A stretch of 64,000 nt of DNA from an uncultured delta proteobacterium (lineage in GTDB: Bacteria > Desulfobacterota > Desulfomonilia > Desulfomonilales > Desulfomonilaceae): the NCBI GenBank assembly GCA_963789265.1, contig CAWBKB010000004.1, forward strand, positions 1 to 64,000, read 5' to 3'. Shown here piece by piece: positions 36,921 to 46,865 of the stretch. The notes below the pieces were generated by a model. The model saw only the letters and a list, made by a program, of their open reading frames with translations, did no database searches and had not been told where the DNA came from. A program made the position numbers and the translations under genes. The first letter of the stretch is position 1; every line of letters starts with the position of its first letter.

Positions 36921-37928
36921 CTAAAGCATCTTGAACAGATCGGTATGCTCTCTCTTTCCTCTGACCTGGACCGTGCGTACATGCTCAACGCAGAATCTTT
37001 CAGGAAGGTGTCCCCGTGTTTCCCCACTTATAAGAATGTCGCAGCCCAAAACCTTAGTCATATCCTGTATCCGTGAAGCAAGGTTCACAGTATCCCCGAC
37101 CATGAGGTACGAAAGACGCTTTGAACTGCCGACACTTGCCGCAACAACTTCACCGCTATGAATTCCAATTCCATGCTGGAAAGGATGATCTCCCTTGGAT
37201 TCCCACTTGCGATTCAAATCAAAGAGGCGCTTGTTCATCTCCATTGCTGCTTCTACCGCTTTAGTTGGATGATCGTCCAAATCTATCGGAGCTCCGAATA
37301 CTGCTTCAATTTCGTCCCCAATAAACTGAAGTACCAGACCCTTACATTTTTCTATTTCCTTAACCATTTCCGCGTAATACTGATTCAATTTTTCAACCAC
37401 TTGTTGAGGAGACGACCTCTCAACGAATGAAGTAAAATCACGTAGATGGCAAAAGAGAATAGTAACATTTCGTGTCTCGGCTTCGGGCCGTGCCTCAGAA
37501 GCCAATATCACGTCTCTGATCTCATTTGATATATATCTCCCAAATATTTCTCGAATGCGCTCTCTGTCCCGCAAACCTTCGATCATTTTATCGGTGCGGG
37601 CGGCGATTTCCTGCTCCAATTGTTTATTCAGTTCCAAAAGTTCGGAAGCCCCTTGGCCTTGAATCTGATCTTCTCGAATCCAGTCTTCCTGCTCTCGATT
37701 CATTTTCGCTGGCGGTTGTGAAAACTTGCCGAGGAGCGGTTTTTGGACCCCTTGGGCGCAAAATCTTCCCGACGACCTCATTTCCGGTGCGGGCGGGCCG
37801 TCGCAAGGTGCCACGGATTCATCCGAGAGTTTCTCCAAGCGCTGCTGAAGAGCCTTTACCGAGGCTATTCTCCTTTCCTTGTCCTCTGCCGTGGACTCCT
37901 GGATGATATGGTCCAGGCCTTTCAAGAA
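36921..37928 (-). pseudogene. C-terminal half (kinase tail + class III adenylate/guanylate cyclase) of an IS-interrupted gene
   Basis: FIGDEI.AVFGAP, GIGIHSGEV, VGDTVNLASR. Continues in frame from the kinase through the TSD (TPFLK|GLDHII). Confidence 0.88.
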
Positions 37929-37969
37929 GGCGATATTATACTTGACAGACCTACGAAAGGGGGACTATG

Positions 37970-39103
37970 ATGAATTTACCTTTTAGCTTGCTAAAAGACA
38001 AGGACTGGCGCGAGAATGAGGAATCCAGTAGAGGCTATCGCATGATTACAACTTTCGACATTGAAAATTTCCGTTGTTTCGAGCACCTTCACTTAGAGAA
38101 CCTGCGCACTATTAACATTATTGTGGGCGACAATGGTTCTGGTAAGACAGCGTTATTGGAGGCATTGTTACTATCAGCGTACGCTCATCCGGGTGCATTT
38201 TCATTTATTCGCTTAGCTAGGAAGTTATCTCTTCCTCGGGAACAGGTTAATTGGGATCGAAATATTTTTATGTCCATGTGGGAAGATGTCTTTTTTAATT
38301 TCCAGGATTCAAAACTTATCAAGGCTAAATTTACCGATTCACTATATGGCAAATTAGAAATAGAAGTTCAATACGTGTGGCCAGAATCGGCAGCGGCCTT
38401 TTTGGGGGGACCTATCCCTCATTTAATGGTTACACGTTTTGAGTCTGAAGAAAGAAAGAGAAGCAAGAAGGCAGCAATGATAGCCTTACTGAAAATTAAC
38501 GAACAAGGCCGGCCTGTTGTTGAAGGACCAACAATAAGAATACCGCCCGTCTATATTCTTCCGTCTACTAATCAGTTTCTTCCAGAGGAAATGGTTATCC
38601 AATATGGTGAACTAAGTAAACGCAATATGGAAGTGTATGTTACTGAGATTCTACGAAAAGATTTCCCAAAATTATCTAACATTCAAATTCTTCCAGATGG
38701 TAGCGGCTCAGGATTATTTGTTAAAATGGAATCTATTCCGAAGAAAAAAATACCACTGGCCTCGGTTTCAGCCGGAGCTGCGCGGTATTTAAATATGTTG
38801 ATGTCAGTTCTTTTGATGGAAAAAGGCATTGTGCTAGTAGATGAGATTGAAAATGGTATTTATTGGAAAAAAATGCCAAACATTTGGAAGAGACTAAGAG
38901 AGTTATGTGTCGAACGAGGCGTTCAGCTTTTCGCGACCACGCACAGCGATGAATGTCTTCAATCACTTATTGAGGGCATGCAAGAACACGAAGTAGATTT
39001 TTCCTTAATTCGTACGACTATTACTGACGGAAAAGGAACTGTTGAACAGTTTGCCGGTAGACCATTCCTAGCTGCTCTAGAGGGACATGGTGAAGTTCGG
39101 TGA
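37970..39103 (+). CDS. AAA/ABC-type ATPase (AAA_15/AAA_21-like), IS cargo
   Basis: IENFRCF, GDNGSGKT, SAG signature, LVDEIENG, FATTHS. Alternative start at 38042. Confidence 0.92.
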   Translation: MNLPFSLLKDKDWRENEESSRGYRMITTFDIENFRCFEHLHLENLRTINIIVGDNGSGKTALLEALLLSAYAHPGAFSFIRLARKLSLPREQVNWDRNIFMSMWEDVFFNFQDSKLIKAKFTDSLYGKLEIEVQYVWPESAAAFLGGPIPHLMVTRFESEERKRSKKAAMIALLKINEQGRPVVEGPTIRIPPVYILPSTNQFLPEEMVIQYGELSKRNMEVYVTEILRKDFPKLSNIQILPDGSGSGLFVKMESIPKKKIPLASVSAGAARYLNMLMSVLLMEKGIVLVDEIENGIYWKKMPNIWKRLRELCVERGVQLFATTHSDECLQSLIEGMQEHEVDFSLIRTTITDGKGTVEQFAGRPFLAALEGHGEVR

Positions 39104-39831
39104 AGGAAGACTGCAAAAGCTGCAAATATCGCATGGAGCAAAGTAAGTCATGGGTATTAGAAGAAGAAAGAGTTATCATTTGTGAAGGGCTACACGATCA
39201 AAAGTTTCTTGAAAAATTGATTGACGAACGGGACCTACCTAGATTTCAAGTCAAAGATGCAGCTAGTTGGAACAGGGTCGAGGTTGGAGGTGTGCAAGGG
39301 TTTGGTTTAGCACTTGAAAAATTAATAGCGGTGACAGGCTTCAAAAATCTAAAAGGCATTGCCATTGTTACGGATAATGATGACAAGAACGCCCTTAATA
39401 ATGTCAAGAAAGCACTCAACAAGCACTTCAAGAAGTTGAAAGACTACGAGTATAAGCCTACAAAATCAGAGGATCTTGTGAGTATTCAGGGCAAGCCGGT
39501 GTTAATTGTACTTGTGCCCGACAGTAACCATTATGGTAACCTAGAATCTCTTTGTCTTCCGGCATTCTATGACCATTGGTCTACGGCAGAAAAATGCGCG
39601 AACCAATTCTTGAAGTGTACTGGCGCTGTCTCTAACTGGACTAATGGGGGGCAGCTTAACAAAGCCAGAGTTAGAGCTATCTTGTCGGGCTACTATAAAA
39701 GTGAACCGTATATAGGGCTAGGTGAAATATTCAAAAAGACTGACGAAATATCAACGTGCCATCAATGTTTTGAGCAATTAGCGAGTGCTTTGAGTCGTTT
39801 TGATAAGACAATTGAACAGAAGGGACCATAA
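39100..39831 (+). CDS. DUF3226/TOPRIM-like protein, partner of the ATPase
   Basis: IICEG.HD..F, IVTDND, G.LE.L; start overlaps the ATPase stop (GTGA). Confidence 0.75.
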   Translation: MKEDCKSCKYRMEQSKSWVLEEERVIICEGLHDQKFLEKLIDERDLPRFQVKDAASWNRVEVGGVQGFGLALEKLIAVTGFKNLKGIAIVTDNDDKNALNNVKKALNKHFKKLKDYEYKPTKSEDLVSIQGKPVLIVLVPDSNHYGNLESLCLPAFYDHWSTAEKCANQFLKCTGAVSNWTNGGQLNKARVRAILSGYYKSEPYIGLGEIFKKTDEISTCHQCFEQLASALSRFDKTIEQKGP

Positions 39832-40029
39832 TTACTGTGTTTCTAATTTTGTGATTGATTCCACCGGAGGTTTTTTAGGCGACAATATCCGCTTTATAGC
39901 CTCGTCAAATTTTTCTTCGGCGTCATCGTCCAGAAGTCGCTCAGCAGTGTCTATGAACCGAGCAGACTGCTCAGGGTCGTCGTATTCTAACCTTTTCTCT
40001 ATTTCTGTTTTATCCTGTTCCTTGACCAT
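39832..40029 (-). CDS. Small IS1595-associated protein
   Basis: DDPEQSARFI..AE.L..DAEEKFDEAIK.IL; homologous to 45261-45425. Confidence 0.75.
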   Translation of the reverse strand: MVKEQDKTEIEKRLEYDDPEQSARFIDTAERLLDDDAEEKFDEAIKRILSPKKPPVESITKLETQ

Positions 40030-40035
40030 TTGGTA

Positions 40036-40398
40036 TTATTCCTGTTTTTTGACGGGAAAGATCAACTTAACTTCTCCCCCTCTTATCCTTTCTGAATCAG
40101 CATCAGAATCATATATCACGAGGGGATCTTTTTGAGCGAATCTTACACGGTAAGTCGGCCCGTCTGGTGTCGGCTTAAAATCATAAACAAATGATGATTC
40201 CACCATCTTTTTGAGTTCACGCCAATCAGAGAAGGTTATCTGTCCAAATTGATAAGTCCGATATTCCTCTTGGGGAACAAGGCGCACGCTCACTACACCT
40301 CCAAAGGTTGGAGTATCACTCCCTATTGTTCGCACATCTTCATTCTTAGGAAGCCATTTCAAGCTTTGATTAAAATAGATTGATCCGAGCCGTACCAT
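40036..40398 (-). CDS. Hypothetical cargo protein
   Basis: 120 aa, RBS AAGGAG, own TTGACA-17-TATAGG promoter-like element. Confidence 0.65.
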   Translation of the reverse strand: MVRLGSIYFNQSLKWLPKNEDVRTIGSDTPTFGGVVSVRLVPQEEYRTYQFGQITFSDWRELKKMVESSFVYDFKPTPDGPTYRVRFAQKDPLVIYDSDADSERIRGGEVKLIFPVKKQE

Positions 40399-40494
40399 TT
40401 TTTGCTCCTTACTAATTTTGATACGCCCTATACTCAGGAAAGATTATCATGTCAAGTAAATGTTATGACATAATTTTTTTCTTATTTTTCTTTC

Positions 40495-41455
40495 TTATGC
40501 TTGCCCACTAGTCGTTTGATAGGCGAGACGCCTTCCGACTACGCCTCTGAGCAGCATTTCGGCTCTTTCAGCGTCATTGAAGCCCTCACGAGCAGGTCTC
40601 TTCCCGCTCTCGGGTCTGCCGCAACGGTAATTATATCTGAAATCAAACTCAGCAAGGTAGCGATGCAGATGCTCTTTCTTACAATGCTGATAGATGCCCT
40701 TCATTCCACGCTTGAAGATTGAAAAGAAGCCTTCGGCAGAGTTGATATGGACGGTGCGATCTTCTTTTGAGACATATTCACCGGCGCCGTGCCGCACCAT
40801 TCCGTGTTTCTGCGAAGTTTTCGTCTATGTGGCAATACTGGCCGGCGTCATCAGTCATAACCCTAGCTTCTCGGTCGATGTTTTCCTGGAGGATAGGAAC
40901 GATAGTTTTTGCATCAACGCTGTCCACAACCATACTGCGTGACCGACCGGATTCGCGATCAATAAGAGACAGGATTTTGCGTTTGTGCGCGTACCCCTTT
41001 CTCACCTCTTTGCCCGGCTCGTTCCACAGGAAAGTCTCGTCTGACTCTACAGCGCCGCCGTTTGCACCAAACGGAGCAAGATCACCGCTTCTCATAGCCT
41101 CGCGGATGCGATGCCCCAGGAACCACGCGCTCTTAATAGTGATACCCAACATTCTATGAAGTTGATTACAGCTTATGCCCTTCTTGGATGCGCTGATTAA
41201 GGTTATAGCCTGGAGCCACTTACGAAGCGGGATATGAGAATCTTCAAAGATAGTTCCGATCTTGACAGTGAAAGCCCGTTGACATACATAGCACTTGTAA
41301 GTGCCAATTCTGCTGGTCTTTCCGCCGAGTTTGTTAACGCGCTCGGTAGAACCGCAGTGAGGGCAAACAGGCCCCCCCGGCCAGAGAATGGCTTCAACGT
41401 ATTCATAAGCAGTTTCTTCACTGTGGAAGCGCATTTCTGAGAGTATTGCTATCAT
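40495..41455 (-). pseudogene. IS1595 transposase, +1 frameshift near 40808
   Basis: CPHCG zinc finger, ESDETF, MTDD, NSAEGFFS, HLHRYLAEFDFRYN. One extra A (GCAGAAACAC) relative to the intact paralog. Confidence 0.93.
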
Positions 41456-41476
41456 GATTATCTCCTTTATGAAGAT

Positions 41477-41505
41477 AGTATATTCCTTTAGGCCAAGTCT
41501 GTCAA
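41477..41505 (-). promoter_or_regulatory. Sigma70 promoter for the transposase, embedded in the TIR
   Basis: TTGACA-17-TATACT, then RBS AAGGAG and ATG at 41455. Confidence 0.8.
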
Positions 41506-41518
41506 GTATAATATCGCC

Positions 41519-42285
41519 TTCAAGAAGGGGGTGGTAGCATTGGTTAAGCTGACCGCCTTTAGCGGAACAGCCGTTTTCCTTTCTGCCATTCTTCCGCATA
41601 CGGCCTCGTATAGGATTTTGCCCAACGAATAAACATCTCCTCGTTCATCGGTCCCTCCCAGATCCAAGAACTGTTCCGGAGCCATGTATAAAATGGTCCC
41701 CTCAACGTGATGGCTCCGAGTCAGTTGCTGCCACTGGACTCCTCCGGCCATTCCGAAATCGGTTATTTTCGGATTGGGTCCATCCATAAGCACATTCTCG
41801 GGCTTGATGCCACGATGAACGATTCCTCGCTCATGAATAGTTTCTATTCCGTCCAGGATTGGTAGAAAATAGTTATGAATCCAGTCTTGGATATCTTGCT
41901 CATTCTCTCCAAACCCTTTTGGGGGCATCGTGGAACGTAGTGTGGAACCTGGTACATATTCCAGCACCACGTAAGGGACAACTAATTCAGTATCTTTTCT
42001 TGCTACCGTGGTTGAGTCTTTGTCGTGGACCTGGACCACATTCGGATGTCGTACCTGAGCCATTGCCCTAGCTTCCCTATGGAATCGGCGGATTGTCGTA
42101 TGGATTTCCTCCCAATCTTCGTCGAATTCCATTAGATAATCAGCGGAAATTGTCTTCACGACCACTTGCCGGTCCAGATTGATCTGTCGGGCAAGGTACA
42201 GCTCGCTTTTGCCTCCAGTGGCGATGGGTTTCAAAATTTCCCACTTGGAGTCCAGGATCATCCCATTTTCCAGCAAACTTGACAT
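41519..42285 (-). pseudogene. N-terminal Ser/Thr protein kinase half of the interrupted kinase-cyclase gene
   Basis: GGKSELY, VVVK, RFHREA, HPNVV, HRGIKPEN, DFG, GT..YMAPE, DVYSLG. Confidence 0.92.
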
Positions 42286-42861
42286 GGTTCGCGCCCTCCT
42301 TCAGGCTCAAGGTTCTTTCTTCGTCTCAGACCATAGAAACGGAAGGCTCCACCATACCCTCCATACTGACTAGCGCGAGAAGGCCCACCCGAAAACAGAT
42401 TTCAAAAAATCCCGGTTTTAACAAAGCGGGGAACTTAAAAGGCGGGCTTGCGTGAAGGGAGCCAGTACCCTGCAACCGAGGATGGCTGGCGTACCGGACC
42501 CGCCGATAAAATAGGCTTGGTCGCCTGGATGAAATAATTTAGGTGCTCCGTTTGGGTCTACTCCTTTTAGCTAGGAATGACATGGGCGTTCCCTAAAAGT
42601 TCCGTTAGAAATACGTAAGATCCGCGAGGTACCCGAAAAGACGGCAAATTTTCTGAAGCTTCACCTTTGCTGATACAGAGCTGATGAGATGGAGTCCCAT
42701 TTTGCGGAATCAGCAACCCATGACTATATTCGAAACGTAATAAACGGAATTTTGCCGGCATGGCATCGAGAGAACTCCAAGCTCAATAGCGATGCACGCA
42801 GGGCCTATTCCACTGGTTCCCATGAACAATTACATCCAGGCAACGATGGGAGGAATAAATT

Positions 42862-43223
42862 ATGAGAGGTCAGATCTGTCACATAGAAATCCCAGCGGAT
42901 AATCTTGAATCATTGCAAAAATTTTACGGCGGTGTTTTGAGTGGGATTTCGAGAAGATGTCCGGAGATATCGAATATTAGGGGATCAAACACGGCGATGA
43001 GAAACCCGGGGCAGGTATGATGGCACGCCAAGATCCCCGACAAACGCCAACTTTCTATGTTTGTGTGGATTCGGTTGAAGAATCTCTCGACAGAGCCAGG
43101 AATGAGGGCGCGACAGTGATTGTTCCCAGGACCGCGGTCAAGGGCATGGGCTGGTACGCCGTCGCGCCGGACCCCCAGAAGAATCTTTTCGGCTTGTGGC
43201 AGTCGGACGAGAATGCCGCTTAA
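42862..43223 (+). pseudogene. VOC/glyoxalase family pseudogene
   Basis: MRGQICHIEIPADNLE..QKFYG.. then a frameshift and a TAG; C-terminal half ends GMGWYA...DP..N.FGLWQ. Confidence 0.85.
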
Positions 43224-43407
43224 CAGAGCCGGTCTGACGGCGTGGGCAAGTCCTGAATGCTCTTGTCTGCGCCGTTTCCTTATGAAGAGAAGTCATCTCC
43301 GGTGGACTGGACGTCCTGCGGCCGGCGCATGGGCGTTAAGTTAACGATTTATTCCCCCCTTTTGTAAGGCGATATTATACTTGCCAAACCCAGAGAGGGG
43401 GAGTAAG

Positions 43408-44271
43408 ATGAATTTAACCTTTCGGCTATTAAGAGACAAGTCTTCTTTGAAAGACCCGTTTCACCCATTCCAGGTTGTGAGCTTGTGGGACATCTTGAGA
43501 TTTTATGCAAGAAATTTCGTTAGGATTTGCTCTAATTTGGCGCATTGCGCTGGGATCATTAACGCCCTGATGCACCCGGATTACTCGGTTGATTTGGCCG
43601 AAATACTGTTAGAAATACAAGAGTTGGGATTTAGGGCGGCAACATCGGGCCTAACCAACTCCGCGAGTAATGCAGACGTTTTGGTGGAACATATCAACTA
43701 TTTATGTAATCAAAACGTCGAAAAGCAGCACTATGATGAAATCCGGGGAAGGCTAGATTCATTAATTCAGGGCGTTTTGCACGAGATTGATAATAGAACC
43801 ATGTTGATGCTTTACCCTACAGGTTCAGGCTTTTATGAAATGGAAGGTACGTTCCTCGGCGAAGAGGTTTTGAGCAAATTTCCCGAATTGAGGAAAGATG
43901 CCGAAGAAGCCGGGAATTGCTTTGCAGTTGGGAGGTATACGGCTTCCGTCTTTCACATGATGCGAATCCTAGAAGTAGTTCTACGTAAATTTGCTCGCAA
44001 ACTAAAAGTAACTCCTAGGATTTTTGACAAAAAGGCATGGGGCATAATCTTGGGTGAAATTAATAAAAAACTTGAACACGAACAAATTGATCCGCCAAAA
44101 GTACGAGCCAAGAAAGACCGACGCAAAATTACTCATGGATTCTTGAATGGCGTAAGAATGGCATGGAGAGACGACACTATTCATGTCAGAGTTGATTACG
44201 ATGACAAAGACGCTATCAAGGTACTTAACGCCGTAAAGCTTTTTGTCGAAGACTACGCGAAATTGCGCTAA
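43408..44271 (+). CDS. HEPN-like domain cargo protein
   Basis: D.EEAG.C.A..RYTASVFH.MR.LE..LR, WG.IL, WRDDTIH (Rx4H). Confidence 0.7.
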   Translation: MNLTFRLLRDKSSLKDPFHPFQVVSLWDILRFYARNFVRICSNLAHCAGIINALMHPDYSVDLAEILLEIQELGFRAATSGLTNSASNADVLVEHINYLCNQNVEKQHYDEIRGRLDSLIQGVLHEIDNRTMLMLYPTGSGFYEMEGTFLGEEVLSKFPELRKDAEEAGNCFAVGRYTASVFHMMRILEVVLRKFARKLKVTPRIFDKKAWGIILGEINKKLEHEQIDPPKVRAKKDRRKITHGFLNGVRMAWRDDTIHVRVDYDDKDAIKVLNAVKLFVEDYAKLR

Positions 44272-44286
44272 GACAGGACGGTTATT

Positions 44287-45261
44287 ATGAGGCACGCAAC
44301 CATCTCTAAGCCACACTTCCAAACCGAAGAGGCTGCATACGCGTATATTGAAGCCCGGATATGGCCTAACGGTCCGGTGTGCCCCCATTGTGGTGCTACT
44401 GAGCGTATAAGTAAGATGAAGGGCAATAGCACCCGAATCGGGCTTTACAAGTGTTATGTGTGCCGAAAGCAGTTTTCTGTGAAGATCGGAACCATCTTTG
44501 AATCAAGCCATATTCCGCTTCGATTGTGGCTTCAGGCTATGACCCTCATTGCCGCATCAAAGAAGGGTATTTCCTCAAATCAACTCCACAGGATGTTGGG
44601 GATTACTCTCAAAAGTGCTTGGTTCATGAGTCATCGCATCCGAGAAGCCATGAGAAGCGGTGACCTGACCCCTTTTGGTGCAAATGGCGGGGCCGTGGAA
44701 TCTGACGAAACTTTTCTTTGGAATGAGCCCGGTAAAGAAGTGAAGAAAGGGTACGCGCACAAGCGCAAAATCCTTTCTCTCATTGACCGTGAGTCTGGTT
44801 GTTCACGAAGTATGGTCGTGGACAGCGTTGACGCAAAGACCATCGTTCCGATTCTACAGGAGAATATAGACCGAGAAGCAAGAGTTATGACTGACGATGC
44901 CGGTCAGTATCGCCACATTGACGAAAACTTTGCCGAGCATGGCATGGTTCAACACAGTAACGGGGAATATGTGTCCAGGGAAGACCGCACCGTCCACGTC
45001 AATTGCGCTGAAGGCTTCTTTTCGATCTTTAAGCGAGGAATGAAGGGCATCTATCAGCATTGCAAAAAACAGCATCTCCATCGTTACCTTGCCGAATTCG
45101 ATTTTCGGTATAATAACCGTTGTGGCAGGCCCAACAGCAAGAAGAGATCCGCCCGTAAAGGCTTTAGCGATACTGAGAGAGCCGATATACTGCTAAGGGG
45201 CGTAGTGGGAAAGCGTCTCACCTATCAAACGACTGATAGGCAAATCGGGGTTATGCGATAA
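44287..45261 (+). CDS. IS1595 family transposase (intact)
   Basis: CPHCG..C..C, ESDETF, MTDD, NCAEGFFS, LHRYLAEFDFRYN. Confidence 0.96.
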   Translation: MRHATISKPHFQTEEAAYAYIEARIWPNGPVCPHCGATERISKMKGNSTRIGLYKCYVCRKQFSVKIGTIFESSHIPLRLWLQAMTLIAASKKGISSNQLHRMLGITLKSAWFMSHRIREAMRSGDLTPFGANGGAVESDETFLWNEPGKEVKKGYAHKRKILSLIDRESGCSRSMVVDSVDAKTIVPILQENIDREARVMTDDAGQYRHIDENFAEHGMVQHSNGEYVSREDRTVHVNCAEGFFSIFKRGMKGIYQHCKKQHLHRYLAEFDFRYNNRCGRPNSKKRSARKGFSDTERADILLRGVVGKRLTYQTTDRQIGVMR

Positions 45262-45425
45262 TGGGAAGAAAGAAAAAACCGAAGCCAGACGACGCGGAGC
45301 AATATGCGCGCTTCGTAAAGGTTGCTGAAGAACATTTGGGAGAAGACGCAGAAGAAAAACTTGACGAAGCCCTAAAGAAGATACTCCCAGCAAAAAAAAC
45401 AAAAGAACCGACCGAGAATGCATAA
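45261..45425 (+). CDS. Small IS1595-associated protein (54 aa, below the ORF-track cutoff)
   Basis: MGRKKKPKPDDAEQYARFVKVAEEHLGEDAEEKLDEALKKILPAKK...; TAATG coupling to the transposase. Confidence 0.75.
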   Translation: MGRKKKPKPDDAEQYARFVKVAEEHLGEDAEEKLDEALKKILPAKKTKEPTENA

Positions 45426-45903
45426 ACAGAAATTCATAAAGGTCAACGCACCGGTGGATGAAGGCGTTGCTGACTTGGTGACGGCTCTAAGTGCCTTTGC
45501 ACGACTTCAAACAATTTCAAGCTGCCAAGGCAGTCAAGATCGACCAGCGCGAATATTATTCATATATGGCTGTTATGAGGGCCGACATTTCTGGAGAGAA
45601 TTGGCAGAATTTGTTCTTGGCTTTTTTGGGCCAGCCTTAGTAAGAGAAGTTGGGGATAGGGCGACCGTTTATCTCCAAGTTTGTGAATCGGGTCTTATTC
45701 AAGCAGAGTTAACGGTTTGGCATGAAGCTTTCCCGCACGTTCTGCGCGCATTGAAGCGACTACACAAACGCTTTACCAGCGAGGCTGACCATAAGTTAGG
45801 GTATTCTGGTGACACTCTGGGCACATGGCAAGAAGATTGCCAAGGTCATCACCGCCCCATCTCGATCTATGGTGAGCATGCCAACCCCAACCAAGGGGCT
45901 TAG
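45418..45903 (+). CDS. Hypothetical cargo protein
   Basis: Start overlaps the upstream stop; motif VD..VA.LV.AL......T.SSCQG. Confidence 0.6.
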   Translation: MHKQKFIKVNAPVDEGVADLVTALSAFARLQTISSCQGSQDRPARILFIYGCYEGRHFWRELAEFVLGFFGPALVREVGDRATVYLQVCESGLIQAELTVWHEAFPHVLRALKRLHKRFTSEADHKLGYSGDTLGTWQEDCQGHHRPISIYGEHANPNQGA

Positions 45904-46024
45904 GGCATCTCATTCCACGCGGATGTTCAAAACAGGTAAGCATGGTACACTCGCAAAAACCGCCTGCTCTCAAGTACAGTTCGTTTCGTGTTGATTCAGG
46001 AATGGACATGATGTTATCCTCCAT
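45773..46024 (-). CDS. Small HNH endonuclease
   Basis: RAGG.CEC...C......WHAHH....GG.D..NL..MC.ECH. Confidence 0.8.
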   Translation of the reverse strand: MEDNIMSIPESTRNELYLRAGGFCECTMLTCFEHPRGMRCPKPLGWGWHAHHRSRWGGDDLGNLLAMCPECHQNTLTYGQPRW

Positions 46025-46238
46025 TGGTTGTTTAGGGGTCGCCCTGACCCAACATCGGGCCGAATAAAGGAATGATACCGCTAAGATAGTTCCTTTATTC
46101 GGCTTTTTCCGTTTCTGAATCGGGAAGACTACATGGTTCTGTTCTTGTTTTCAAGAGGTAAGTTATTGGAACCGCGCGCGTTTTTAGATAGAAAGTATCA
46201 AGGCAAACAAAGAAGGGTTTGGCAAGTATAATATCGCC

Positions 46239-46320
46239 TTTTGTAAAGGGGGGCCAGGGGGGATTTTGGGATAACTCATTGAAAATCCCCCTAAATTCCC
46301 CTTTAGAAAAGGTGGACTTT
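46239..46320. repeat. CCCCCCTTT..AAAGGGGGG REP-like doublet, split by IS1595 element 2
   Basis: Removing the IS restores TTCCCCCCTTTTGTAAAGGGGGGCCAGGGGGGATTT, with an inverted partner AAATCCCCCTAAATTCCCCTTTAGAAAAGG. Confidence 0.75.
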
Positions 46321-46865
46321 GATCGCCCTCGGCCTCCATTCACCTCTTGAAAAGGAACGAAATTGCCTTAAGTTAGCGCCTGTGTGCGGCTGGCGGGACT
46401 GCTCCAACGGTCTATGACAGACTGTCGTCTCAAGCTCCCCGATCAAATCGTTTCGCACATATCCAAGTATCGGTCACGGCACATGCAACTCGATCCAATC
46501 GGGCAACAACCGGGGATATTATCTTTAGGACATTTTTCGCACCGATAGTAATTTACAGGACAGGTCAGTGTATTTGATTTCACAGGCTTTCTGGATTTCT
46601 CCTCGTACGTGGATTTCTCATTCATTTTCAATCACCTCGCGGCTATCTGTGCCGATCGTTTCCAGTAATAATGATGCCGATCGTCAGTTAGAAGTTTCGT
46701 AATCGTTCGCGAGATAATCAATCCCGCGATCCGCGCGGGATCACCGTCCAGCGAGGCGTGGCTTGTGCCGAAAAGGCGGAACATTGGCCCCTACGGTTCC
46801 CTCCGTAAGCGGAAATGACAACAAAACGATATCCTGCACCGCGACACGGATATTACTCCGCTCCG

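Follow-up and report, generated by a model that had tools for sequence, protein, structure and literature searches.

Two IS1595-type elements whose unrelated cargo genes share an N-terminal leader, probably the start of a resident HEPN-like gene

Introduction

Why should two unrelated genes, carried by two different mobile elements, begin with the same few codons? The question is raised by a stretch of 64,000 nucleotides (the window: positions 1 to 64,000 of the forward strand of contig CAWBKB010000004.1, assembly GCA_963789265.1) from an uncultured delta proteobacterium of the Desulfomonilaceae. It contains two insertion sequences (ISs) of the IS1595 type, E1 and E2. An ATPase gene in E1 and a gene of a family that we call HEPN-like in E2 both open, shortly inside the terminal inverted repeat, with the leader MNLxFxLLxDK. 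The original prediction took this leader for a part of the IS end itself, that is, for a component of a portable expression platform of promoter, ribosome-binding site (RBS) and leader to which captured genes become fused, similar to the Pc promoter of integrons. Our analysis indicates that the leader is probably the start of a gene resident in this group of ISs and that the ATPase of E1 was swapped in frame behind it.

ISfinder holds an ISNwi1 subgroup with passenger genes, and transporter ISs (tIS) of the IS1595 family were reportedly described by Siguier, Gagnevin and Chandler in 2009. Where PMC3129680 and PMC3004938 mention ISs with passenger genes, they credit them to Siguier et al. 2009.

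Results

The leader reads MNLPFSLLKDK in E1 (ATG at 37970, with a second ATG at 37967) and MNLTFRLLRDK in E2 (ATG at 43408) and starts about 41-42 nt inside the left repeat. The left ends of the two elements are 81% identical over 36 nt and 77% identical over 48 nt, and their similarity is detectable up to 38002 and 43440, respectively. Reading the open reading frames (ORFs) bore out that both elements join unrelated genes in frame to the leader: without a stop codon, it continues into an AAA_15/AAA_21 ATPase in E1 and into a protein without Pfam family in E2. The codon differences noted before (TTG/CTA, CTA/TTA, AAA/AGA) are all present, and the leader end is indeed distal to the transposase gene in E1 and upstream of it in E2. 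The proposed length of eleven codons holds for E2, whereas the shared segment of E1 comprises 17 codons.

The cargo genes of E2 and of E5, a further element of the same genome, are full-length homologues (29% identity over 293 aa, E 1.4e-27), and E5 begins with MNFAFELKKDK. The cargo of E3, also from this genome, is a more distant HEPN-like member that is related in its C-terminal half. A profile built from five HEPN-like sequences retrieved 8221 representatives at E<=1e-3 and still 689 when the threshold was lowered to E<=1e-30. Among the 151 listed representatives whose N-termini we counted, 23 carry the motif F.L..[DGN]K within the first 22 residues, usually in the form MNLAFELQKDKxLREDNPLQPYKIVSLWDML, and 20 others begin without leader, directly at the helix that follows it. 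Related genomes provided three elements (L120, L122 and L130) in which other genes abut the repeat and the HEPN-like gene, preceded by unrelated DNA, starts 877, 815 and 1438 nt inside the element, respectively. These internal genes still open with the leader: MTNLAFELQKDKDWRED in L120, MNLVFDLQKDKSLREN in L122 and MSLAFNLHNDKDWRDD in L130. Since the leader stays with the gene when the gene is internal, it is the N-terminus of the HEPN-like gene and not a feature of the IS end. Judged by these sequence comparisons, the leader is native to the HEPN-like family; the view of it as a property of the IS end is at odds with the homology of E2 and E5, the 23 motif carriers and the internal copies.

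The E1 leader MNLPFSLLKDKDWRENE is homologous to HEPN-like genes through codon 17, after which the frame continues as ESSRGYRM-ITTFDIENF. Its ATPase matches the PADLOC models AbiLi (6.6e-42) and PDC-M38A (1.1e-38) besides Pfam AAA_15/AAA_21. The AbiLi match extends over residues 26-378 of the 378-aa ORF and over profile positions 1-340 of 340. Residue 26 is where all family profiles set in, which marks the 25 residues before it as an extension. The AAA_15/21-type ATPase gene is followed by a DUF3226-type gene, which is the gene order of AbiL/PDC-M38 modules. From the alignments we conclude that in E1 the HEPN-like body after codon 17 is replaced in frame by an AbiL/PDC-M38-type pair of ATPase and DUF3226 genes.

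The fusion recurs elsewhere. Five database ATPases that are 50-62% identical to that of E1 have the leader too, spaced from the canonical Met as in E1: MDLAFDLQKGKPLRDDNAPVRGYRM (P0153), MHNLAFDLQKDKPLRDDDAPIRGYRM (P0154), MNFAFELQKDKPLREDKGPSRGYRM (P0155 and P0157) and MSLAFSLDKGKPLRDDSAPIRGYRM (P0161). Other close homologues (P0156, P0158, P0159), known as proteins only, have been called from the canonical Met. A DNA scan for repeat plus leader, blind to the downstream frame, found two further ATPase-type ends, L044 and L050, in other metagenomes. Both lie in the usual target and have repeat, leader and ATPase in one frame; the ATPase ORF of L044 ends after 179 codons and that of L050 runs off the contig. 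Three more ends from such scans (L047, L055, L101) are all HEPN-like, and the ATPase is the only foreign family found behind the leader. True loci made up 4/16 of the yield from metagenome contigs and 1/44 from genome contigs, the remaining hits having arisen by chance in AT-rich DNA; searching 61 relatives for a 15-nt repeat pattern with one mismatch allowed gave mostly noise. Aligning ends for preservation of the frame, as had been proposed, thus gave leader and ATPase in frame at all three ends readable as DNA (E1, L044, L050), and a random frame was not seen. The 24 codons before the canonical Met contain neither indel nor stop codon in these three copies and the five further proteins.

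Ordinary selection on the protein does not seem to account for the conservation of the leader. For codons 2-16 of 11 ends, the summed column entropies are 12.6, 9.1 and 11.5 at codon positions 1, 2 and 3. As a control, the transposase genes of ten of these elements have mean entropies of 0.40, 0.25 and 1.12 per codon; none of 290 windows of fifteen codons had an entropy at position 3 (H3) as low as that at position 1 (H3<=H1), and of 152 columns whose amino acid is invariant, only 7 also keep the third base. Along the HEPN-like gene, H3 per ten codons amounts to 7.5-8.5 in the leader compared to 10.8-17.5 (mostly 13-17) further on. The fixed sites are TTT (Phe), GAC, AAG and, in codon 8, which is otherwise free, the third base. 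As they are fixed in the internal copies too, the constraint belongs to the 5' end of the gene and not to the distance from the tip. The caveat in the original prediction that conservation could be at the DNA level was therefore justified, as synonymous leader sites are frozen relative to the transposase genes. The leader DNA is not needed for transposition, because element L129 has a perfect target duplication and no HEPN-like gene. A candidate leader hairpin (CTTTTAG/CTAAAAG in E1) was discarded: 72.7% of cells were paired compared to 75.2% after shuffling, covariation was no better and RNAalifold gave -0.38 kcal/mol. Rfam had no match at E<=1 across 37500-46600.

The frozen nucleotides could alternatively be a cis element that overlies coding sequence, either an outward antisense promoter (TTGTCT-17-TAnnnT on the opposite strand), whose RNA would be complementary to the RBS like that from pOUT in IS10, or a homology arm for the exchange of cargo between elements. 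TTG.C within the putative -35 and the A within the putative -10 are among the invariant bases, the spacing of 17 nt is free of indels in 11/11 ends, the pattern ..TTG..A...GACAAG is kept in the three internal copies, and leader variants are common to different cargo types. However, the antisense hexamers match the consensus at only 5-9 of 12 positions, with the -10 lost in L050, L055 and L125, several of the invariant bases lie in the spacer, and the promoter scan did not list the site. We consider this explanation quite unlikely.

What the IS end itself supplies can be read from a comparison of 17 non-transposase ends. All 17 have a start codon 35-57 nt from the tip, preceded by a G-run at 16 ends and by AGGAGG in L132, and in the 11 aligned leader ends ATG, GTG or TTG is invariably kept 4-8 nt past the G-run. 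At the ends of L120, L122, L129 and L130, unrelated small ORFs without leader start at the same place. RBS and start position hence form a general slot and the leader does not, given that foreign ORFs use the slot without it. The ends also contain a promoter-like sequence whose -35 falls within the inverted repeat, followed by a spacer of 16-18 nt. In E1 it reads TTGACA-18-TATGAT; with 11/12 matches it shares the top score of all promoter-like sites in 8.6 kb with the transposase promoter. Yet the -10 overlaps the start codon at 13 of the 17 ends and is separated from it by 4 nt at one more (L130). With the G-run in the spacer and the ATG overlapping the -10, a transcript from the repeat promoter cannot carry the leader start. 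At all 13 transposase ends, the -35 is likewise located in the repeat, with a spacer of 17 nt in each case, and the ATG follows 21-23 nt past the -10 in 9 of 11 placeable ends. An alternative promoter with its -10 in the outer repeat (TATTAT/TATACT) would have its -35 in the flank, which reads CCCCCT there. Read outward, four repeats (37929-37947 and three others) contain a perfect TATAAT that stops 6 nt short of the element tip and may act as an outward -10.

These ends decide how much of the proposed platform can stand. In its strict form, the IS end encodes a portable cassette of promoter, RBS and leader and captured genes are fused to it in the manner of integron Pc. The RBS and start slot is present at 17/17 ends and serves unrelated ORFs in the four elements named above, the leader variants of the ATPases parallel those of HEPN-like genes (P0165/P0040, E1/P0016, P0154/P0030), and the end ATG of E3 is in frame with a cargo gene that possesses a GGAGG of its own and an ATG at codon 19. 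Of the platform, this slot remains. The leader follows the HEPN-like gene to internal positions, is absent from the four foreign end ORFs and has one foreign family only behind it, which fits the N-terminus of one gene family. The promoter component fails on geometry, since its -10 overlaps or nearly abuts the start codon at 14/17 ends and the RBS lies within the spacer. Nor does the analogy with integrons hold, as by Pfam the DDE transposase is the sole recombinase among the ORFs of E1 and E2 and no repeated site flanks the cargo. It is improbable that the strict form is correct.

The parallel leader variants are the strongest point for the modular view of the original prediction, though they rest on few cases. 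The E1 leader shares LPF..KDKDWR with the HEPN-like P0016 (11/14 positions), and ATPase P0154 shares MxNLAF with HEPN-like P0030. A second variant is found in ATPase P0165 (MNAFEKRSL) and HEPN-like P0040 (MNAFEKGSL), where only 9 residues are shared and the junction is different. These few pairs suggest that end segment and cargo reassort, either by repeated fusion or by exchange of end segments between elements. An extended version would combine a fixed cis module (9-17 codons, frozen sites and RBS) with defence-type cargo that is repeatedly slotted in frame, giving two or more AbiL-type ATPase junctions; the IS would then be a carrier of a translational-fusion cassette whose cargo is silenced by pairing of the palindrome C-run with the G-run. 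We regard this version as unlikely.

Several observations weigh against the leader being a translated gene start taken over by the ATPase. The near-consensus repeat promoter would start transcripts inside the leader. The sequence AGAGG is located seven nt upstream of the canonical Met of E1, and with this site of its own the ATPase could be made without leader. The first 20 residues have a predicted local distance difference test (pLDDT) of 43-60 in both structure models, HEPN-like and ATPase. The five chimeras known as proteins only are visible just where gene callers kept the long ORF. Finally, the conservation of the leader is unlike ordinary protein-level selection and part of it is at the nucleotide level. 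Most of these points would agree with an untranslated leader in the ATPase elements, that is, a 5' untranslated region of transcripts from the repeat promoter that is conserved as DNA or RNA, with the ATPase starting at the canonical Met behind an incidentally open frame. Transcripts from TTGACA-18-TATGAT (11/12) would start at about codon 3-4, and the AGAGG, the frozen synonymous sites and the low model confidence in the leader residues are all compatible with it. Against it stand the 24 codons before the Met, free of indels and stop codons in 3/3 DNA copies and in five proteins that are only 50-62% identical, and the unsupported hairpin. In addition, G-Y-[RQK]-M is kept before the canonical Met throughout the family despite differing extensions, which argues for an upstream start. 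Among 120 listed ATPases (P0152-P0271), 45 have a variable extension ending in G/D/E-Y/F-x-M and 46 are called from the Met. As extensions ending in G-Y-[RQK]-M are common, translation upstream of the canonical Met is normal for the ATPase family, and many AbiL-type ATPases are probably annotated too short at the N-terminus. We hold an untranslated leader to be very unlikely.

The flanks of the elements may influence the use of the resident start. E2-E5 and most related elements lie in the loop of the palindrome CCCCTTT-N3-AAAGGGG, of which the genome has 88 copies compared to none for four scrambled control patterns. Three elements of this genome have identical 14-bp flanks. By its sequence, the palindrome looks like a REP-like (repetitive extragenic palindromic) repeat family that is the preferred target of the IS. 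The G-run RBS AAAGGGGG equals the 3' half of this palindrome; upstream of 2560 long ORFs, GGGGG occurs 70 times and GGAGG 314 times. When RNA reading through from the flank was folded, the probability of an unpaired RBS was <=0.01 at 8/11 non-transposase ends, compared to 0.07-0.40 for element-internal RNA and 0.07-0.27 with shuffled flanks. This fits a silencing of read-through translation in which the C-run of the flank would pair with the G-run RBS, as far as folding models can indicate.

The label HEPN-like is reasonable but not proven. In an alignment of 124 sequences H183, R254 and H259 show no variation and N255 hardly any, giving an RNxxxH motif that conforms to the R-x4-6-H motif of the HEPN superfamily. 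The AlphaFold model of the E2 protein (mean pLDDT 89.1) consists of an N-terminal four-helix bundle and a C-terminal domain, and MNLxFxLxxDK is probably a disordered tail in front of them. With VIA-align, the C-terminal domain (133-287) aligned with LsoA (Z 9.9), RnlA (Z 9.9) and Roquin (Z 10.0), scores within the noise that the tool states for helical bundles. The label falls short of proof because Foldseek against the PDB found nothing at E<=0.001 and no Pfam, NCBIfam or PADLOC model matches the family. In a sample of 401 genomes of the phylum, the profile matched 2, including the genome studied here, and a word-index protein search with the HEPN-like protein returned 3 proteins only.

Gene content was scored over 14 delimited elements. 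The HEPN-like family is present in 11 and a small conserved ORF (family F3) in 12, and on this comparison the HEPN-like gene is the usual second, resident gene of the IS1595 clade. F3 proteins are charged and 54-65 aa long (MGRKKKP..DDPE..ARF..DAEE..KKI), and their gene adjoins the 3' end of the transposase gene. They could be assigned to no family: a match to MT0933_antitox (E 0.045; 14.4 bits, cut-off 27) was below threshold and not used, and neither was a match, likewise below its cut-off, of a 112-aa ORF of E3 to GIY-YIG nucleases (E 0.033). The minimal element E5 (2207 bp) consists of repeat, HEPN-like gene, small ORF and transposase gene that converge on the HEPN-like gene, and repeat. 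The block of transposase gene and small ORF points towards the HEPN-like end in 11 of the 14 elements and away from it in three (E2, E3, L121); in the latter type, the transposase gene lacks a promoter in the repeat and begins 15 nt past the HEPN-like stop codon. We also inspected 14 loci selected without regard to ISs (13 on viral contigs, taken by HEPN-like similarity alone, and one genome locus), and at seven of them an IS1595 transposase is encoded in the fetched stretch. The transposases of L137, L146 and L132 are 56%, 34% and 35% identical to that of E2; their HEPN-like genes start 35-43 nt inside a repeat that contains TTGACA or TTGCCA, with differing N-termini.

The inverted-repeat pattern GGCGATATTATACTTGNCA occurs four times in the window (37929+, 41518-, 43368+, 46238-) compared to 0.03 expected occurrences and marks the boundaries of E1 and E2 (Table 1). 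Removal of E1 together with one copy of its duplication in silico restores a single continuous host ORF of 588 aa, so that E1 has inserted cleanly into a host gene. The transposase of E2 matches DDE_Tnp_IS1595 (PF12762, 1.8e-31) and the IS1595 zinc ribbon (PF12760, 1.1e-13), and both domains are present in the broken transposase gene of E1. By transposase domains, terminal repeats and 8-bp target duplications, E1 and E2 belong to the IS1595 family. The genome contains three more elements, E3, E4 and E5, all with 8-bp duplications; TTAGAAAA is the target duplication common to three further copies in this genome. E3 and E5 are diverged, whereas E4, at another locus, matches E2 with 99.9% identity over 2872 nt. 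E1 and E2 are transporter ISs, as their target duplications enclose the cargo and E2 is found with its cargo at two loci. The passenger ORF of E2 (161 aa) and an ORF of 158 aa in L122 (L122:1098-1571), which starts at the end RBS, look alike by eye (..ISSCQG.. and ..ISSCEGH..), and small cargo genes seem to swap positions within these elements.

Table 1. Features of E1, E2 and their surroundings, in window positions (a point in the strand column marks features without strand).
Feature	Position	Strand	Basis or remark
Host gene, 3' part, adenylate/guanylate cyclase domain	36921..37928	-	Pfam
E1 target duplication TTCAAGAA	37921..37928 (left), 41519-41526 (right)	.	both copies read
E1, IS1595-type transporter IS, 3590 bp	37929..41518	.	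perfect 22-bp inverted repeats and 8-bp target duplication
E1 inverted repeat, non-transposase end; TTGACA at 37942-37947	37929..37950	+	repeat comparison
E1 promoter-like TTGACA-18-TATGAT; G-run in spacer, -10 overlaps both ATGs	37942..37971	+	11/12 matches
E1 G-rich RBS GGGGGA	37959..37964	+	G-run kept in end alignment
E1 leader MNLPFSLLKDKDWRENE, 17 codons, from HEPN-like gene 5' end	37970..38020	+	comparison with HEPN-like genes reading ..KDKDWRED..
E1 chimeric AbiLi/PDC-M38A-type ATPase gene, 378 aa; ATPase-native from 38021, canonical Met 38042-38044	37970..39103	+	
E1 DUF3226/PDC-M38B gene; start overlaps ATPase stop codon by 4 nt	39100..39831	+	DUF3226 5.7e-11, PDC-M38B 8.3e-9
E1 small conserved IS protein F3	39832..40029	-	alignment
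E1 120-aa ORF, no known family	40036..40398	-	
E1 IS1595 transposase gene, frameshift near 40790	40495..41455	-	two ORFs are the two DDE_Tnp_IS1595 halves
E1 inverted repeat, transposase end; canonical promoter TTGACA-17-TATACT, ATG 21 nt past -10	41477..41518	-	
Host gene, 5' part, Ser/Thr protein kinase domain	41519-42285	-	Pfam
Target palindrome sites	43354-43367 with 46239-46252; also 46282-46312		
E2 target duplication TTTTGTAA	43360-43367 and 46239-46246	.	
E2, IS1595-type element, 2871 bp	43368..46238	.	24-bp perfect inverted repeats
E2 G-rich RBS GGGGGAG	43397..43403	+	
E2 HEPN-like accessory gene, 287 aa; first 11 codons (43408-43440) are the leader	43408..44271	+	
E2 IS1595 transposase gene, intact, 324 aa	44287..45261	+	
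E2 small conserved IS protein F3, 54 aa; start overlaps transposase stop codon	45261..45425	+	
E2 passenger ORF, 161 aa, no family found	45418..45903	+	

Discussion

The homologies, the junction with its reading frame and the boundaries of the elements can be read directly from the DNA, and the arrangement recurs elsewhere. The most probable explanation is that the leader is the start of the resident HEPN-like gene and that an ATPase took its place behind this start in the lineage of E1. The unit of the clade would comprise three genes between two repeats, for the transposase, the small protein of 54-65 aa and the HEPN-like protein. The transposase would be read from a canonical promoter with its -35 in the repeat, and the gene of the small protein would lie directly behind. 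The HEPN-like gene would occupy the opposite end, its G-rich RBS and start codon placed about 35-57 nt inside the repeat. In the E1 lineage, a two-gene module of the AbiL/PDC-M38 type would have replaced the HEPN-like body by a crossover after codon 17. RBS and ATG would have stayed in place together with the first 17 codons, which would have been fused in frame to the ATPase's own N-terminal extension (..RGYRM). Because RBS, ATG and 17 codons are retained in frame, the E1 ATPase would be translated from the start of the resident gene. We infer that the leader is translated and that its retention was selected for the translation start region together with a nucleotide-level element.

ISs with cargo blur the boundary between insertion sequence and transposon and move defence genes. 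The resident gene of this clade belongs to a very large family (8221 representative clusters) without Pfam or NCBIfam model, and E1 shows that a defence-type module can take over its start by an exact in-frame swap. The ends provide a concrete case of IS control over an abutting gene, with a promoter unusable for the start codon, an RBS that mimics one half of the palindrome at the target and a lack of drift at synonymous sites. Overall, E1 and E2 extend the known kind of transporter IS by a new variant, and the original prediction is supported in part.

Transporter ISs of the IS1595 family resemble these elements in their zinc ribbon and DDE_Tnp_IS1595 domains, short repeats starting with GG, 8-bp duplications and extra genes inside. 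The present elements differ in that a conserved HEPN-like second gene abuts one repeat and a small ORF follows the transposase gene, and further in their insertion into palindromic repeats and the replacement of cargo by in-frame fusion. A literature search at the level of listings did not find a HEPN-like resident gene, a palindromic target or in-frame cargo replacement in the IS1595 family. With the Pc/attI region of integrons they have in common that a fixed site beside the recombining end gives expression signals to interchangeable genes. Unlike integrons, they have neither integrase nor attC-like sites, the segment in common is part of a resident gene, and a gene is replaced with translational fusion, by one foreign family only.

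IS10 and IS50 are protected from outside transcription, and pOUT of IS10 makes an antisense RNA. Similarly, RNA reading through from the flank is predicted to hide the RBS here, but the complementary C-run is part of the target palindrome and not of the element, and the antisense promoter is a weak candidate. Compared to the AbiL and PDC-M38 candidate anti-phage systems, E1 has an ATPase that covers the full AbiLi profile and a PDC-M38B/DUF3226 second gene. The E1 pair differs in lying inside an IS, in an ATPase that bears a 17-residue N-terminal piece of another gene and in a defence role that is predicted from sequence. Finally, the HEPN-like protein shares an invariant RNxxxH with the HEPN RNase toxins LsoA and RnlA, with which its modelled C-terminal domain aligns at Z scores within helical noise, whereas its N-terminal four-helix bundle and its leader are without counterpart in these toxins.

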